A DNA stretch of 63,235 bases, counting the filler, from Globobulimina sp. (lineage: Eukaryota), in NCBI GenBank assembly GCA_003354225.1. It is 57 parts of 57 records of this genome, joined end to end, with 100 filler letters (N's around TTAATTAATTAA, not from the genome) between each part and the next. Parts side by side here need not be neighbours in the genome. Positions count along the whole stretch, not along the records: positions 27,796 to 28,806 come from PIVH01025855.1; 56 more parts are not named here. One strand, 5' to 3'. The position numbers and the translations under genes were made by a program. The notes beneath the pieces were generated by a model. That model was not told the origin of the DNA and made no database searches. It was given only the letters and a program-made list of their open reading frames with translations. Positions 6,673 to 55,367 of the stretch are shown here, piece by piece. How positions within the stretch are numbered: position 1 is the stretch's first letter; every line of letters starts with the position of its first letter.

Positions 6673-7636
6673 TTTAAGTTTTCTAGGTCAAAATTTCGAA
6701 AATTAAACCTTGCTTCTTTATATGAACTTAGGCTATCCTCAGTAACTATTCCAACAGTTACATATTTTGGTCTTTGTCCTCTGCTAATAACAATAGGATT
6801 TATTGTCAGTTGATTCATTTGATGCGGTACTGAAGCAAAACATAGTTTTTCAGATTACAAACTAATTATTTTAATGCAACAAACTTTTCTTGGTCACATG
6901 ATGCAGAAAATTATAAGAGCGGGAAGCAATGCGAGAGTTTTTTGGAATGATTTGACCAACTGTTAGATAACAGTCTTGAATATGAATGACATATTTACTG
7001 TTTTCAGCAGTACTGATTAGGCATTCCTCTGGCGAAGCAGGATAGAGGGTGAAAGTTAGAGAAACTCTATCCAATATGGGCTTATCAACTTGTAAAGTGT
7101 CTACTAGAAGTTTCCCACTCAAATGAACTGTTTTACTATCTCTTGCCGCTCTGTTGCGTGAATAAGCACCTAGGTAAATAATTTTTCTGTTTTCCGAAAA
7201 TGCAAAATTTAGGTCAAAAATTATTACCAGGATTTATTGATTTAATGGCAGGATTTATTAATTCCATAGCGCCAGGCCGATCCTCCATATAGAGGGCAGC
7301 AGACAAAATATTTTCTCGATCTGCCTTACTAGTGCTCAACATTAGTGCGATGTAAGTTTTGTAAGCATAATATCCATAACTTGTTTCTTCTACTGTGTGG
7401 TTAAATGATACATTTATTTCCTAAAGTTTATAATTAACTACTATTTCCGTGCTTTCAACACATTTAATTAACAAATTTACTTTGAATATAGTATAAAGCG
7501 GAAGTTGTTCCAATGCAACTGGTTCAGCATCTGAGATATTCTCAAGCGTTCCGTCTTCTTTCAGTTTAAAAAGCTTTATTTCCAAATTTATATATATTTC
7601 TTGTGGGTCAATATAGATATTTGGAGCACCAGAAAC
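6673..7636 (-). CDS. Polinton/Maverick (adintovirus-type) major capsid protein, spliced: exons 7636-7481, 7420-7228, 7169-6885, 6829-6673; partial at both ends
   Basis: Three GT-AG introns (60, 58, 55 nt) restore one frame: VSGAPNIYIDPQEIYINLEIKLFKLKEDGT..LYTIFK/EINVSFN..YYAYKTYIALMLS..LYMEDRPGAM..NP/GAYSR..DSKTVHLSGKLLVD..DKPILDRVSLTFTL..YVIHIQDCYLTV..KK/IPH..RGQRPKYVTVGIV..RFNFRNFDL; motif order follows the Maverick MCP pattern as recalled. Confidence 0.8.
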
Positions 7637-8646
7637 CTAAATAGATACGTTTTAGTTCCAAAACTATCAAATTTCTTAAAAATANNNNNNNNNNNNNNNN
7701 NNNNNNNNNNNNNNNNNNNNNNNNNNNNTTAATTAATTAANNNNNNNNNNNNNNNNNNNNNNNNNNNNNNNNNNNNNNNNNNNNTGTTTAAAGGTCATAC
7801 AGTATTGTTTATGGATTTATAAATGCCACTCATTAATAAAAGGCAAAACAAACACGCACAGTGTATGTATGACCCCTCAGCTCCTAGTCATTCATCAGTC
7901 AAGGTATCAACATAAGTTTTCAAAGCTTGTTTTTATAGTTTTTAGATTTTCCTCCATTTACATGCAAAAGCAATAAAGAACTGAATAAAATGGTGGTCTA
8001 AAGCCTCATAACTTTAGTAAGGTTGCACAAAACTCGATTAACTTTACATAATTGGTCCCTTTCGTTATCCTTCTCGTTATTGGTCCCGAACACCACCTTA
8101 AATATACTGTACTTTAACGTAAATTGCCCAAATTAAATGTTTGTCCAATCTGGTCTCGCAAGGAATGAATCTCAGAATCGAAAGATTTACGCGGCGATTC
8201 AAAATCGTGATAATATGCAGTTGAGAATAAATGTTATTTATTCGAGAACCATACCGTAACATGACATGGTATTTTATCCTTCTAAATTGCCCTGTATCAG
8301 GCATCATAACAATAACAACAAACTCGACACATACCTCGCCATCGCTGAAAGGTAACCTTCTTCTTGTTCTTTTGGACCCTCACTTCCTCTTTCTTCAATA
8401 TGCCTTTTGGAAAAGTTTTCATTGTTGTTGATTTTGCTTGGTTCTGAAAAACATCACATAATATCACGGGAAAATCCAGATGGAGACCAGGCAGACCAGG
8501 CACAATTATTTGTCAAAAACCGACTTTTGGCCCTTTTTTTCAGTTTTTTCAAAAATAAATGGTCAAAATCGGCTATTTTGCCCGTTTTTGCCCGTTTTTG
8601 GACCTTTTTTTTCGTTTTTTCAAAAATAAACGGCAAAAGTTGGTTT

Positions 8647-12233: not shown

Positions 12234-13244
12234 AGCATTATTAGCAAACAAGAGTTAGTCGACACCCTTAAGAATGTTTTAAATGGCGTACCAGCGTTTG
12301 CTTTGATGCTTGGGTTGCAGATAGTCTCTCCTCAGATGAAAAATATCTTAGGGTGGATCAATGATTTGCGTATTAAAGCCCATCAAATATCTGCCAACAC
12401 ATGTGATCTGTCGGCTCTTTTAGTGGGTGGCATGGTTTCGCGAAATGAAGCCTTAAGTGCACATTGGTGTGCCATGGATGCGGTTAAGCACGGCAAGCTT
12501 AGTGGTAGAGCTGCTGCGGTCATGTGTGGTCGTGATCCAAATTATAGAAGTGGCGTTGAAAAGCTGGCGCAAAGTAGAGGTAAATGGGAGCTAACTGATA
12601 ATTACAATATAGCACATGAAGCTATGAAAAGAAGTGACGTATTGAATTCCCTTGATGCAGAAACTAAAGCTTTAGTTATGACAATCACCGGTTCATTTGT
12701 GGTGAAAGATGGAAAGCCTTATGCAATACATGGTGACGCTAAAAATGGCATGATTGCTTTGTACGAGGGCGGGCCTATAAAATTAATTAATTGTGCTGAT
12801 GATTCTTGTTTAACAACAAAAAAAACCGAGCTTTCGATCCCTCCGAAAAAATCATTTTCTGGTAATTATTATTCTATTTTAGTGGCGTTAGCAGAGGCTT
12901 TGAGCGATGGTGGCGGGATAGATGACAGTACCAAAATTAAAGTTAATGTATTGCTTAGTAATACTAACTTGCCTATCTATGACAATATGCAAGCCCATGC
13001 AGTTGCAGTTGGCTCTGTGCCATACGGTAAAATCCAACAATATTCCGAAGTCTTAGCCCTTGATGTGATCAGTAATTATCTGGACATGATAATTAGAGAA
13101 ATGAAAAAAGGGCTAAAGAGTTTGAAGCCTAAAATCAGTCAAGATGTAGTCGTGCAGGATTTTGAAAAGGGATTGAATGATGTTATACGCCTTGTGCGTA
13201 CATCTCAAGGCAATATCCGCAAGAAGGTTGGAACTAATTATAGA
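12234..13244 (+). CDS. traH: F-type conjugative transfer protein TraH, internal fragment (bacterial)
   Basis: SIISKQELVDTLKNVLNGVPAFALMLGLQIVSPQMKNILGWINDL..ISANTC matches the TraH N-terminal block; also ALVMTITGSFVV, LINCADDSCL and TNLPIY; no introns, higher GC. Confidence 0.8.
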
Positions 13245-27795: not shown

Positions 27796-28594
27796 TCAGA
27801 AAATTTACTTTCTATTCTGTTAAAGTTGTATTTTACTGGGATTCCCATAGCCAACTGCGAATTATAAGCATTGACCAAACCTTCTTGAACATCCTTTCGT
27901 ACTACTTTTATTTTGCATTCCAACAATTTAAATTTAGGATCTTTAGTTACATCAGTACTATTGTACATAAGCCTGCAATTATTAAAGTTCGACATTGAAT
28001 GTAAACATTTAAAGGTACCTAAATTTGTCTTTGGCATGTCTCAGTGTAATTCGCATTCCGACTTTGTTAATAAGCATTTTCAAACTTTGCATCATGGGAA
28101 AGGGAAAACGTCCAAAGGTTTCAATCGCTCTGCCATTTGACAGCCAATTCATTCTTGTTAAAAAGCCTTGATTTCTTGTCTTTGATTTATCTAATTCTAG
28201 AGTATCATATTGGCCATTTGTGTCTTTCGCAGAACACAGCGATTCACCTAGCCAAGATTTGTTGGGACTCGAACCATAACTGTATACATAATGGAAATAA
28301 GCATACCAGGGCCAATTTCCTAAAAGGTGTAAAATTTAGGAAACTGTTCATTCCAAACTTTAAGCTTTTACCATTTGTAAGAAATGCTATTTTGTCCCCG
28401 ACCTGAACAATAACTTCTTCCCACATAGAAAAATGTGCCATATTTATAGGTGCACAGGAAAAAGTATCAGGCAGAGCCTTGTCCGTTTTGGCATCATACA
28501 GTTTCCATTTACTCCACAAATCGATATCGAATGATGTCAAACTATGAGATGAAGGGTCGATTTCGAAAACAACTTCTTGAATATAGAGCCACAT
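27796..28594 (-). CDS. Second Polinton/Maverick (adintovirus-type) major capsid protein, spliced: introns 28320-28371 and 27973-28018; partial
   Basis: EVVFEIDPSS..KWKLYDAKTDKALP..APINMAHFSMWEEVIVQVG..TN/GNWPWYAYFHYVYSYG..AKDTNGQYD..NQGFLTR..IETFGRF..KMLINKVGMRITLRHAKDKF/RLM..KFKLLECKIKVVRKDV..AYNSQLAMGIPVKYNFNRIESK; 52- and 46-nt GT-AG introns restore the frame. Confidence 0.82.
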
Positions 28595-30017
28595 GATCTA
28601 AGCTGATGTGAAAGCCAATTTATGCTTTAAATTCCACGTGATGAGAGCCAATGAACCAAAAACCGCGCCGAGCTGACCCCTCCATGAAATCTCAGCCTCT
28701 CAGAAGCAGGAGCTCTTCTACACGCAGCTGAGAAAGTCGGTCAAGCTCAAGGAAGACGTCGGTCAGTACCGACGCGCCGCTACCGGGCATCCCGATCACA
28801 CCTACGNNNNNNNNNNNNNNNNNNNNNNNNNNNNNNNNNNNNNNNNNNNNTTAATTAATTAANNNNNNNNNNNNNNNNNNNNNNNNNNNNNNNNNNNNNN
28901 NNNNNNTGACACTGCAAAATAGTTATAATCATCTATGAACGGCGCCATGTTACTCTAATGGAATTAGAAAGATATGCGATTTTACAGATAATGCCTGTTA
29001 AAGAGCGTTTTTATTCAGGCAGGAATATTCTTTTGTATGTATTTATCGATCCAGGAGAGTGCCCAGCCTAGCTCACATTGATCTGCAGTATAGAACGGGG
29101 GTGGCTGTTTATTCGACGCGACTGAGCTCTTTCGTTTATGATTTTTAGTAAATGTATATTCTTCTATAATGTATATTTCAGAGGCGTTATAAACAATCAA
29201 CGGGTGATGATTTCTGCCATCAATAGGCGTCTACTGTCCAATAAGCCTCAAGGCGTAATGTGGAGAGAAATCCACCATTAATAGGCGTCTACTCTCAAAT
29301 ATCCCGAATGTATTAAATTCTCTTGTGATTTTGAGGAATGAGCCTCAAATAATATAATAAAAATAACTGAAAATATTGTTTATTCATATGCTTCAATGCT
29401 GCGCAATTGTCAGTCTGCTTATAATGACAACAATAACATGTTTGGTTCTATAATAACCTTTCGTGCATTGTTACGATACTGTTCATCTCTTCTTGTTTAC
29501 AAGCGCAATGTGTGCACATATTCAGAATGATGTTTTCTCGAAAACAGCGCTGATTCAACAATGTTGAACCCTACTCGTCAAATTATAATAGTGGCTATAG
29601 TAGCTATAACCAATTACAGCGGCCTACTTCTTGCACAAAGCGCGGGAAACCGTAAACAACTAAACCCCTCTCACCTTGTAGTATTACAGGCACCAACGCG
29701 ACTTTACATTCCCCTAGGATGAACCCTACTCAAGAAAAACTAATTGTTGTAACTAAAACTTGTTGAACTAATTTATTTTAGTACTACACTCTACTTTATT
29801 TTGCCGAAAAGACAATAGAATATTGTTAAATAACGCTGTTAGATTGCGAATTGTCGAAGTGATAGATGTGGAAAATAGATTGATGTTAGAAAATGTTGAG
29901 CTTAATGATGCTTATAANNNNNNNNNNNNNNNNNNNNNNNNNNNNNNNNNNNNNNNNNNNNTTAATTAATTAANNNNNNNNNNNNNNNNNNNNNNNNNNN
30001 NNNNNNNNNNNNNNNNN

Positions 30018-32265: not shown

Positions 32266-33070
32266 ATGCCAAATAACGAAGACGATGTAAAAGAAGCATA
32301 TACAAATGATGAGAAATACGACGAATCGTTAAATTTATGCACAGCAATGAAAAGGCTCCACATTGTATTGCAATATTTTGAGAGATTAACAGCGAATGTT
32401 AAGTGTTTCTGTGCGTTTATTTTTATGTTGTATATGTTTTATTTTTTTGTATATATACAGTTAGCAAACACACACAATACATATCCTCATACAATCCAAC
32501 AATTTTTGCAATCTTTGCCAGATTATGGAGTGGTGGAGTTATTGAATGATACACAGCATATCATTAGACATCAAACGCATCGCTTATGTAAAAATGGCAA
32601 AGCTTGCGTTTTGTTGAAACGAGCATCGCGATCTAGAGATAATGACTCGAATCTATCACAAAATGATAAATTGCTATTGTTCAATACTAACATAGCAAGT
32701 GATTGTATTTATATATCAATGTTGGATGAGGCACACGTTTTGTCCACACACTCAAAATATGATATTGTTACAGATACTTTCGTGAAATCATTAGCTAAAA
32801 ATGTCACAGATATTCAACAATATCACATCAATTGTAACCGCGATACGCAACTCTCTGTGTTTAATACCGGTGTATATATCAATTATGTGGAGACAATCCC
32901 TTTGTATCCAAATCTAAAACATGAAATAACGCGCAATGTATTGCATTCTATATCCACGGAGCAATTTGAAGATGAATTGAAATCCAGCAAATTCTTTATG
33001 AAAACTAACAATGTCGTCAACAAATGGCGAGCTTCAAAGACCGACAAACATCATGGAATCATAACCATAA
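32266..33070 (+). CDS. Hypothetical protist protein with a 63-nt in-frame intron (32398-32460); fused to a GC-rich foreign tail from ~33072
   Basis: T-rich GTTAAG...TACAG segment; abrupt GC shift near 33072. Confidence 0.6.
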
Positions 33071-33409
33071 CTCGGCCGTTCCAGGAAAAGCAATTCCCCC
33101 AACTCGGCAATGGTTTGATCCCACATCCCATCCAGCATCTCAACGGCCGTGAAGACCTCATCGACCATTGGTTCACCCGTGGACGCGATTCTCTCCAGCA
33201 GCGGTTTGACCTGCAACCGCAATTTCGCCAGCAGTGCCGTATGTCGGTCTNNNNNNNNNNNNNNNNNNNNNNNNNNNNNNNNNNNNNNNNNNNNTTAATT
33301 AATTAANNNNNNNNNNNNNNNNNNNNNNNNNNNNNNNNNNNNNNNNNNNNCTATATCGAGGTCCCGTAATGTTAGAGGATCTATGTGGTATCTTGATGAG
33401 ATTCCGGCT

Positions 33410-34361
33410 TCATCCTTTATTAAGACAACGATAGCAATGACCTTTAATTTTATCCCTGCGTGCTTTAAGGGTTGTATATTCAGTACATTCATCAGGCCAA
33501 TGTGGTTTTGTACAGTACACACATGATTTAGGACTGCGGGAATTAAATTTAGGCTTACCTGGGGTTTCAAACTTACCCTTAGATCCAGATCCGACAAACA
33601 GAGCTTCAGTCGTTGCTTTGTATCCACCTTTTTCTGAGCCATGATTTGGTTTTGGTGGATTTGAATAATTAGTGCTTGAGGCACCTGGGACCACTGCTGA
33701 TTCACTGGCAATGATATATTCACCCAATAGATTTCGCAAATTTCTCACTGTCCATTCAGTTGCCGAACCTTTATGCATATTGAGCTGTCGGAGAACATCA
33801 GTAGGTAATTTGCATTTTATCATAGAGACAAATTGTGGATGGTCCACATCTTGACCAATTGCTTCCAGACTTCGCATATGTTGTTCCACACTGTCATAGA
33901 ATTGGCGTAATTTATGCACTTGATTTGAAGTTGCGGGCAAATTAGTGAGCTTCATGTAGTGGGCATCAATAATAGCCTGTGGATCTCCAAATCTTGTTTT
34001 TAATAAATTCAATGCCACTGTATAATTTTCATTTGACAGTTGGATTCCCGAAATGGCTGTCAATGCTTCGCCTGACAATTTGCTCTTCAAATAATTGAAT
34101 TTGACTATTGAGTCCATATCTTCCCTTTTGTTAATCACCGAATTAAATGAATCCCAAAATTCAGTCCACTTCATTTTATTCCCATTAAATGTTGGCATTT
34201 CCAACTTGGGCATATGAGTGGCGATAGGAATAGTACTACGACCAGTACCAGTTGAAGGATTTCTTCTTTCAGTTGTTGTGGATGTACTTGCCACATTATT
34301 CTGATTGGCCATCAACTGTTGTACCTGTTGTTGAATTCTCTGCATTTCTGGATTTGGTACA
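33410..34361 (-). mobile_element. BEL/Pao LTR retrotransposon gag (DUF1759 plus zinc knuckles), partial
   Basis: LEMPTFNGNKMKWTEFWDSFNSVI..KFNYLKSKLSGEA..NYTVALNLLKTRFG; CVYCTKPHWPDEC; CYRCL. Confidence 0.92.
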
Positions 34362-54455: not shown

Positions 54456-55367
54456 TATGAAGATCTAGAAGCTGAATCACATCACCGAATAATAGCAAGA
54501 GGTAATGTAGAAACACCATTGGACACCATACAGGAAGAAAGAACTATTGGTACCAATAGCCCAAATAGCCAAGAGAGCCATGTTGAAGAACTATTAACAA
54601 GAACAATGGAAGAAAGTCGTGCTCGATTGTGGAAGAATGCATATGATCAAATTAACTGTGATGCATCCAAGAAACAAGGAACAGAAGACGAACCATCACA
54701 AGCTGAAGATCAATCAGCACAAATTAGAAGGATAAATGCGATCCTAACAACGGAAGTAATACCAAGATCAGAAAAGAAAGAGAGCAAATCAAAGGCATGT
54801 GGTTATAAATGGTCAAGGAGTCACAAGAAAGGTACCTTATGTCATCAAGGGGAAAAAGACATCCCAGGACCAGGCTATGTTTGTCACAATTGTAACTCTC
54901 CGGGACATTGGCGCCATCTATGCACAGGACAATCAACAACAAATTCAACTGGATCATTATTTCGTGATATTTGTAGGGGAATAAATCGACGAGAATATTG
55001 TCAAGATCGCGATTACCCAATGATGACCAATGAACAAGCATGGCCAAATGTTCCCATGTCGATAGTACGAGAATACCAAGTACAAGCATTGAGAGTGAAG
55101 CGCAAATATCGCCAAGTTCAAGAGGATGTATCAGTAGAACGAACAGAAAAGATACAGGTAACAACAGTCGAAAGATGGCCAGACATATTGTTTTGCAAAG
55201 ACCCAAATGCATGGATATGTGAAGCATGTAAAGAAGAGCGAGCATGCCCATACTGGATAAGAATTTTAGAATTAAAAAATCAAGCGATCGAACAAAATCT
55301 ACAACGTGAATGCGCAAGTAAAGAATTTAGCGATTCACAGCGACTAGATGACCAACAATCCAGATAA
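54456..55367 (+). CDS. CCHC zinc-knuckle protein, possibly gag/ORF1-like; partial
   Basis: PGPGYVCHNCNSPGHWRHLC; intronless, A-rich. Confidence 0.55.
   Translation, partial: YEDLEAESHHRIIARGNVETPLDTIQEERTIGTNSPNSQESHVEELLTRTMEESRARLWKNAYDQINCDASKKQGTEDEPSQAEDQSAQIRRINAILTTEVIPRSEKKESKSKACGYKWSRSHKKGTLCHQGEKDIPGPGYVCHNCNSPGHWRHLCTGQSTTNSTGSLFRDICRGINRREYCQDRDYPMMTNEQAWPNVPMSIVREYQVQALRVKRKYRQVQEDVSVERTEKIQVTTVERWPDILFCKDPNAWICEACKEERACPYWIRILELKNQAIEQNLQRECASKEFSDSQRLDDQQSR

Follow-up and report, generated by a model that had tools for sequence, protein, structure and literature searches.

Two contigs of the Globobulimina sp. assembly GCA_003354225.1 carry capsid-like coding sequence interrupted by short segments with the appearance of introns, which raises the question of whether the two genes acquired their introns independently. 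The window, i.e. the whole stretch of DNA analysed (63,235 nucleotides), is made up of 57 separate contigs of 1010-1012 nt, each divided from the next by a spacer of the form N44-TTAATTAATTAA-N44. Its Pfam content, as scanned on 226 open reading frames (ORFs) of at least 60 aa, is mixed and comprises eukaryotic, animal-like domains (EF-hand, kinesin, GPS, fn3, MATH, DUF1759, LRR and G-alpha) together with at least one bacterial contig, on which a full-length open frame for the bacterial conjugation protein TraH occupies positions 12234-13244 (E 8.8e-30). The assembly is thus a mixture of bacterial and eukaryote-like contigs, and the host of the capsid-like genes, judged by the Pfam domains on the other contigs of the window, looks animal-like.

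Capsid homologues in the window

Major capsid protein (MCP) genes had been predicted on two of the roughly 57 contigs, those at 6673-7684 (copy 1) and 27796-28806 (copy 2), both of which are read from the minus strand. A phmmer search with the second exon of copy 2 returned 15 matches, eight of which are real relatives; the seven spurious ones, all bacterial repeat proteins (six with Flg_new_2 and one with PKD domains), were dropped. The relatives include P0001, matched at E 3.8e-41, and P0013, the source name of which is 'uncharacterized protein F54H12.2-like [Lingula anatina]'. A search from P0013 yielded 85 relatives, mostly of about 434-445 aa, the named ones coming from scallop, leafhopper, fish and wasp. 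Of 543 pattern matches in a metagenome scan for the family, 539 were relatives; 80 loci were kept.

In the longer of these loci the capsid gene comes fifth in a row of six ORFs that share one orientation. Its neighbours carry rve and Chromo domains in all five loci scanned, DNA_pol_B_2 on two of the four polymerase-sized ORFs scanned and weak matches to Adeno_IVa2, Pox_A32 or helicase-type ATPases in three of five loci, and by its domain content the neighbourhood is recognizable as the Maverick/Polinton gene set. The compact layout, with six ORFs on one strand, was observed in L057, L063, L064, L051, L065, L021, L026 and L016, in the order pPolB (~1120-1190 aa), an ATPase-like protein (~215-276 aa), rve plus Chromo (~365-410 aa), a protein of ~265 aa without a Pfam match, the capsid protein (441 aa) and a protein of ~155 aa that is likewise without a Pfam match; in L026 the polymerase ORF sits on the opposite strand. 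A further ORF adjoining Maverick genes (L015:1980-2804) contains DUF5679 and a phospholipase A2-like domain (E ~1e-11 each), and may encode a cargo protein or a virion phospholipase.

The AlphaFold model of a family representative, P0024 (pLDDT 90, pTM 0.88), matched viral capsid proteins in the PDB, namely those of PBCV-1 (E 2.6e-16), Sputnik (3j26_A, E 3.2e-15) and mavirus (6g44_A, E 3.2e-14), as well as iridovirus and faustovirus capsids, with E values ranging from 1e-16 to 1e-12. Against BFVD, the same model matched a bracovirus-borne homologue (37% identity) and capsid proteins of adomavirus (LO7), virophages, adintoviruses and MELD-viruses. The family, which databases annotate in animal genomes as 'uncharacterized protein F54H12.2-like', is thus the Maverick/Polinton MCP, as seen both from a double jelly-roll like those of PBCV-1, Sputnik and mavirus and from the linkage of its members to genes for pPolB, a packaging-ATPase-like protein and an rve-chromo integrase, and the same structural neighbours are reported for the model of a nematode Maverick MCP (Widen et al., bioRxiv 10.1101/2022.07.12.499685). 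The adomavirus LO7 and adintovirus hexon-type capsids and the DJR-like_dom family PF21738 are also structural neighbours of the family model, a relationship that holds at the level of fold and remote profile only; LO7 is itself reported to match PF21738 by HHpred at 96% (PMC13696692). In the ESM Atlas, the clusters nearest to the exons of both window copies carry PF21738 in 10-15% of their members (11-14% for exon C of copy 1), and hmmscan gave no PF21738 match with the exons at E values up to 10, with P0012 or P0013, or with the capsid ORFs found in the metagenome loci.

When ORFs from all six frames of the 57 contigs were searched with an HMM built from 46 family members, only the contigs of copy 1 and copy 2 matched, exactly the two out of 57 that had been predicted. 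The matches run in column order, at E values between 6.1e-16 and 0.095, and the best other contig reached 0.57. Given these matches, collinear with the profile over columns ~42-317, and the capsid fold of the family, both window copies are identified as very divergent homologues of the Maverick/Polinton double jelly-roll MCP, the fold itself being assigned to them solely by homology to family members of the P0024 type. A giant-virus (NCLDV) capsid origin was rejected, since there is no Capsid_NCLDV or Capsid_N Pfam match and the neighbourhood of the relatives is that of Mavericks. The NCLDV MCPs share the double jelly-roll fold class with the family, but the latter has no Pfam match to them and, in the fold search, is 7-14% identical to them in sequence. 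Indeed, no Pfam capsid model matched any of the 226 ORFs at E up to 0.001, or three exon pieces of the window copies at E up to 10. Word-based protein searches with exon 2 of copy 2 and exon C of copy 1 gave no match, and no relative was found by scanning IMG/VR viral contigs with the family alignment, metagenomes with a smaller alignment of the copy 2 subfamily, or prokaryote genome contigs for either copy. In the literature, no paper matched 'F54H12.2', and the sources consulted, as far as their accessible text goes, do not describe animal Maverick capsid genes with introns.

Gene structure and intron positions

A tblastn search of the window with copy 2 missed copy 1, which is too divergent and was instead found through a motif in the original prediction, IFK adjoining a GT. 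All of its parts lie on the minus strand. The contig opens with what is probably the 3' end of an upstream intron (7684-7637), which closes with the acceptor CTATTTAG before HMM column 52; an in-frame stop lies directly upstream, and family columns 1-51 are missing from the contig. Exon A (7636-7481) covers columns 52-99 with a weak but collinear match (E 0.095), and is followed by intron 1 (7480-7421; 60 nt, GTAAAT...ACTTTAG), which lies in phase 0 between columns 99 and 100, after IFK. Exon B (7420-7228) covers columns 100-161 (E 4.8e-8 over columns 101-156) and is separated by intron 2 (7227-7170; 58 nt, GTAATA...TACCTAG, phase 1, column 162, NP/G) from exon C (7169-6885), which covers columns 163-265 (E 2.9e-13). 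Intron 3 (6884-6830; 55 nt, GTTTGT...GCTTCAG) lies in phase 1 at column 266 (KK/I) and leads into the partial exon D (6829-6673; columns 267-317, E 6e-5), which runs off the contig.

Copy 2, also on the minus strand, consists of three ORF pieces in differing frames that are linked by two GT..AG segments. Exon 1 (28594-28372) covers columns ~42-114 with a weak match (E 0.066) that is collinear over columns 49-110. Its ATG is preceded by a stop and by an acceptor-like CAGCTTAG, which points to either a further upstream intron or a truncated N-terminus, the first ~41 family columns being absent from this copy. Intron 1 (28371-28320; 52 nt, GTAAAA...CTTTTAG, phase 1) splits a codon at column 115 (TN/G), and exon 2 (28319-28019) covers columns 116-210 (E 6.1e-16); one part of this exon, 28090-28206, is hypervariable in the copies found in one sequencing run, X1. 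Intron 2 (28018-27973; 46 nt, GTACC...TTGCAG, phase 2) splits a codon at column 211 (KF/R), after which the partial exon 3 (27972-27796; columns 212-264) runs off the contig end; the ORF that contains it (27798-28040) matches the family HMM at E 3.3e-4 over columns 208-264. The interval 27973-28371, to which attention had originally been drawn, covers precisely the two introns of copy 2 and the exon between them.

The five complete introns are all bounded by GT..AG, are 46-60 nt in length, as had been stated, and are AT-rich, with a GC content of 0.23-0.29 (0.21-0.29 with the partial intron included) compared with 0.31-0.39 in the exons. The five sites proposed beforehand (IFK, NP/G and KK/I in copy 1, TN/G and KF/R in copy 2) were all recovered. 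Four of the five introns shift the frame, and the fifth, intron 1 of copy 1, has a length divisible by three, yet carries an in-frame TAG at its end. Excision of each complete intron restores the frame and leaves a contiguous alignment to the HMM. By a rough estimate that allows seven positions of slack per pair, the chance of finding five such GT..AG pairs is ~6e-10, and the ~262 and ~232 stop-free exon codons of copies 1 and 2 would arise by chance with probabilities of ~1e-7 and 8e-7, respectively, given the stop frequency of the window. There is accordingly a good indirect case that both copies are spliced, since their GT-AG ends and exact removability are those of U2-type spliceosomal introns. 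A search of sequencing runs for the stretch found 0.44 of its words in X1 and almost none in X2 and X3, and no RNA run was listed as containing it.

The interruptions could also be chance insertions that mimic introns in dead, decaying copies of Mavericks. Genewise is reported to label insertions in degraded Mavericks as 'introns', some of them shorter than 100 bp (Barreat & Katzourakis, PMC8097293), and the missing N-terminal columns of copy 2, with a stop ahead of its ATG, are what a pseudogene might display. Chance insertions would not, however, be expected to share GT..AG ends in five of five cases, to be alike in length and low in GC, and to be removable exactly, nor would dead copies be expected to retain more than two hundred exon codons each free of stops and frameshifts. 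The positions of the copy 2 introns are moreover conserved in P0001, which is 68% identical to this copy. Decay is consequently regarded as very improbable.

The positions were compared by aligning each exon to the HMM of 46 F54H12.2-like family members, which has 437 columns. The introns of copy 1 fall before column 52, between columns 99 and 100, and at columns 162 and 266, and those of copy 2 at columns 115 and 211, so that none coincide; the closest pair lies 15 columns apart and is anchored by a conserved Y-x-Y-x-A-Y motif. Within the overlap (columns ~49-264), copy 2 is continuous at three copy 1 introns and copy 1 is continuous at both copy 2 introns. The remaining copy 1 intron, at column 266, lies two columns beyond the end of the copy 2 contig, outside the comparable region. 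The absence of shared positions, at first noted from an alignment made by eye, thus holds on the profile alignment, and the differing places suggest long residence as spliced genes.

Relatives, phylogeny and the origin of the introns

The two copies are identical at 29 of 200 aligned columns (14.5%), and each has a higher identity to the ordinary capsids of Mavericks, which lack introns (medians 22-23%), than to the other copy; even with their nearest typical members they share only 22-27% identity. The two are homologues of one family but not close paralogues. Of the 80 metagenome loci, 72 have a single ORF over at least 400 of the 437 columns, and the remaining eight comprise four cut by contig ends, two that are truncated and two with a stop or frame break; an intron-like insert was found in none of the 80. 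The core genes of intact vertebrate and nematode Mavericks are likewise described as intronless in the published accounts (PMC8097293; bioRxiv 10.1101/2022.07.12.499685). Since ordinary members of the family lack introns, those of copies 1 and 2 are derived, and, ordinary Maverick capsid genes being single ORFs, they would have been acquired later.

Evidence that the copy 2 introns are inherited features comes from P0001, a 153-aa ORF on another contig, which contains a 17-residue in-frame insert at columns 114/115, exactly at the intron 1 site, and ends just after column 210, right past the intron 2 site. Two other members of the copy 2 clade, P0006 and P0007, have ORFs that run uninterrupted across both sites (columns 115 and 211). 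Fragment ORFs in this clade begin or break off near intron sites, P0002 at its start (column 117), P0011 and P0007 at their ends (columns 209/210 and 268, respectively), which hints that the sites may be more widely, if partly, shared within it. Near the base of the clade stands P0012, a full-length single ORF of 451 aa. The P0012 cluster contains 14 near-identical sequences from ENA, JGI and NCBI on contigs of ~1.8-5.3 kb, sizes that would fit transcripts.

In the maximum-likelihood tree, copy 2 and P0001 form a group (support 100), which is then joined by P0007 (93), P0006 plus P0011 (87) and P0002 (98). Copy 1 is placed on a very long branch apart from this clade, with a support of only 63-66, and a tree joining it to the copy 2 clade was not rejected by the AU test (p-AU 0.644); the joined tree scored 8.58 log-likelihood units above the quick free search. 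A single old intron-bearing clade is therefore a live rival to separate gains: such a clade would have gained many introns once, after which differential loss would have left complementary subsets in copies 1 and 2. Both the AU result and the ORF ends near intron sites in P0002, P0011 and P0007 are compatible with this history, which would nevertheless require at least six gains followed by at least five losses across the two lineages, as well as extra losses in P0006 and P0007, which are open through columns 115 and 211. That P0012, near the clade base, is one ORF also speaks against it, and the attraction of copy 1 to the copy 2 clade may be a long-branch artefact. On balance, differential loss of ancient introns appears unlikely.

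The non-coinciding introns are most economically explained by separate gains, as there is no shared position and the relatives are intronless. The independent intron gain put forward in the original prediction is thereby partly supported, with the qualification that differential loss is compatible with the tree tests. Both window copies are probably intact, intron-containing Maverick/Polinton MCP homologues, the introns of which were gained separately in two divergent lineages of long-resident, maintained genes. According to this proposal, both copies would reside in one host genome, where nuclear transcription would be followed by spliceosomal removal of the introns, which are short, AT-rich and of the GT-AG type. 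The introns would have been acquired after an ancestral, uninterrupted ORF, by gain rather than loss and separately in the copy 1 and copy 2 lineages, during the time in which the genes persisted under selection; the genes themselves may be domesticated capsid genes or belong to old Maverick lineages that have become adapted to nuclear expression with splicing.

The introns might instead belong to a virus or active element, i.e. to a nuclear polinton-like or adintovirus-like lineage with a spliced capsid gene, the two contigs representing two such viruses or elements, perhaps from different hosts in a mixed sample. The two copies are indeed just 14.5% identical, the assembly includes bacterial DNA, and the fold relatives of the family include viruses with spliced genomes, such as the adomaviruses. 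Intron-bearing cargo genes are also reported in nematode Mavericks, but the core genes of intact elements are described there, and in a second account, as intronless (bioRxiv 10.1101/2022.07.12.499685; PMC8097293). The lack of an intron-like insert in all 80 related loci and of any relative among the IMG/VR viral contigs further counts against this explanation, as does the presence in a single sample of several variants 91-92% identical to copy 2, which resemble genomic paralogues or alleles. It is held to be improbable.

Comparison with known elements and variation of copy 2

Their introns set these genes apart from the typical Maverick/Polinton MCP, which is a single ORF of about 434-441 aa: as known here from 1-kb contigs, copy 1 has four short introns (three complete and one partial) and copy 2 has two. 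The closest parallel is with the Maverick-Polinton-like viral elements of dinoflagellates, which are reported to bear introners, i.e. copies of repeated introner transposons (PMC11957031). These elements are likewise virus-derived, belong to the same broad group and have spliceosomal introns acquired after or around integration. In contrast to them, none of the six introns examined here recurs in the window, the host appears to be animal-like from the domains of other contigs, and lengths of 46-60 nt fit ordinary short introns. Indeed, when the six intron sequences were compared with the 57 contigs (57 kb) by blastn-short, only self-hits and exact chance words of 11-14 nt were obtained, and the possibility that the introns are repeated, introner-like sequences, raised at the outset, found no counterpart in the 57-kb window, where nothing introner-like was seen.

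Intact, divergent copies with lineage-specific short introns would mark capsid genes that have long been under nuclear expression and gaining introns, and with the ancestral intronless state known, such genes could serve as cases in which intron gain can be dated. Lineage-specific short introns in Maverick capsid genes extend known biology only modestly, because the genes are seen here as two 1-kb fragments and because integrated viral genes and transferred genes are already known to acquire introns in other systems, e.g. from the dinoflagellate introners (PMC11957031).

Further copies related to copy 2 were found in X1; the data for X1-X3 are DNA-type Logan contigs, among which none covers 28442-28806, and the variant contigs are of low depth (3-4.5x). 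One piece from X1 is identical to copy 2 and three are ~91-92% identical to it, one of these variants crossing intron 2 of copy 2 without a gap. The differences are concentrated in a segment of 117 nt within exon 2 (28090-28206), which holds 29 of the 40 differences shown and in which the X1 variants display a compensated 1-nt deletion and insertion. As counted on these 40 of the 54 differences between copy 2 and the X1 variants, with a few codons blurred by the indel pair, codon changes within the segment are seven synonymous versus 14 non-synonymous, and outside it nine versus two, changes in the flanks being mainly at third codon positions. The largely synonymous pattern outside the segment is a further argument against decaying pseudogenes. 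Thin as these counts are, they suggest that copy 2 combines a constrained core with a fast-evolving loop at 28090-28206.

A more far-reaching possibility is that the genes form a domesticated, host-maintained, multi-copy family derived from a Maverick capsid gene, with host-like splicing, purifying selection on the core, a fast-evolving surface loop and repeated gain of short introns, the product acting perhaps as a restriction or decoy factor against related elements. This more specific proposal is considered rather doubtful; were it true, the copies would form a natural series in which the gain of introns by an animal-like genome could be dated. The putative abundance of the family, proposed at the outset from two contigs out of 57, would rest on these and on the three copy 2 variants (~91-92% identical) in one run, X1. 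Repeats seem to be over-represented among these 1-kb contigs, which would bias any inference of copy number.

Retrotransposon-like ORFs were observed at 33413-34360 and 54456-55364, where DUF1759 (Pao-type gag, E 6.3e-36) and a zinc-knuckle ORF were recognized. Upstream of copy 2, its contig ends in a GC-rich tail (28646-28806, GC 0.58-0.60) with a plus-strand frame open to the contig end. The tail would be either part of an adjacent gene with a different, foreign base composition or the product of chimeric assembly. The mean GC content of the window is ~0.33, and the only other similarly GC-rich stretch lies at the end of contig 30 (~33040-33250).
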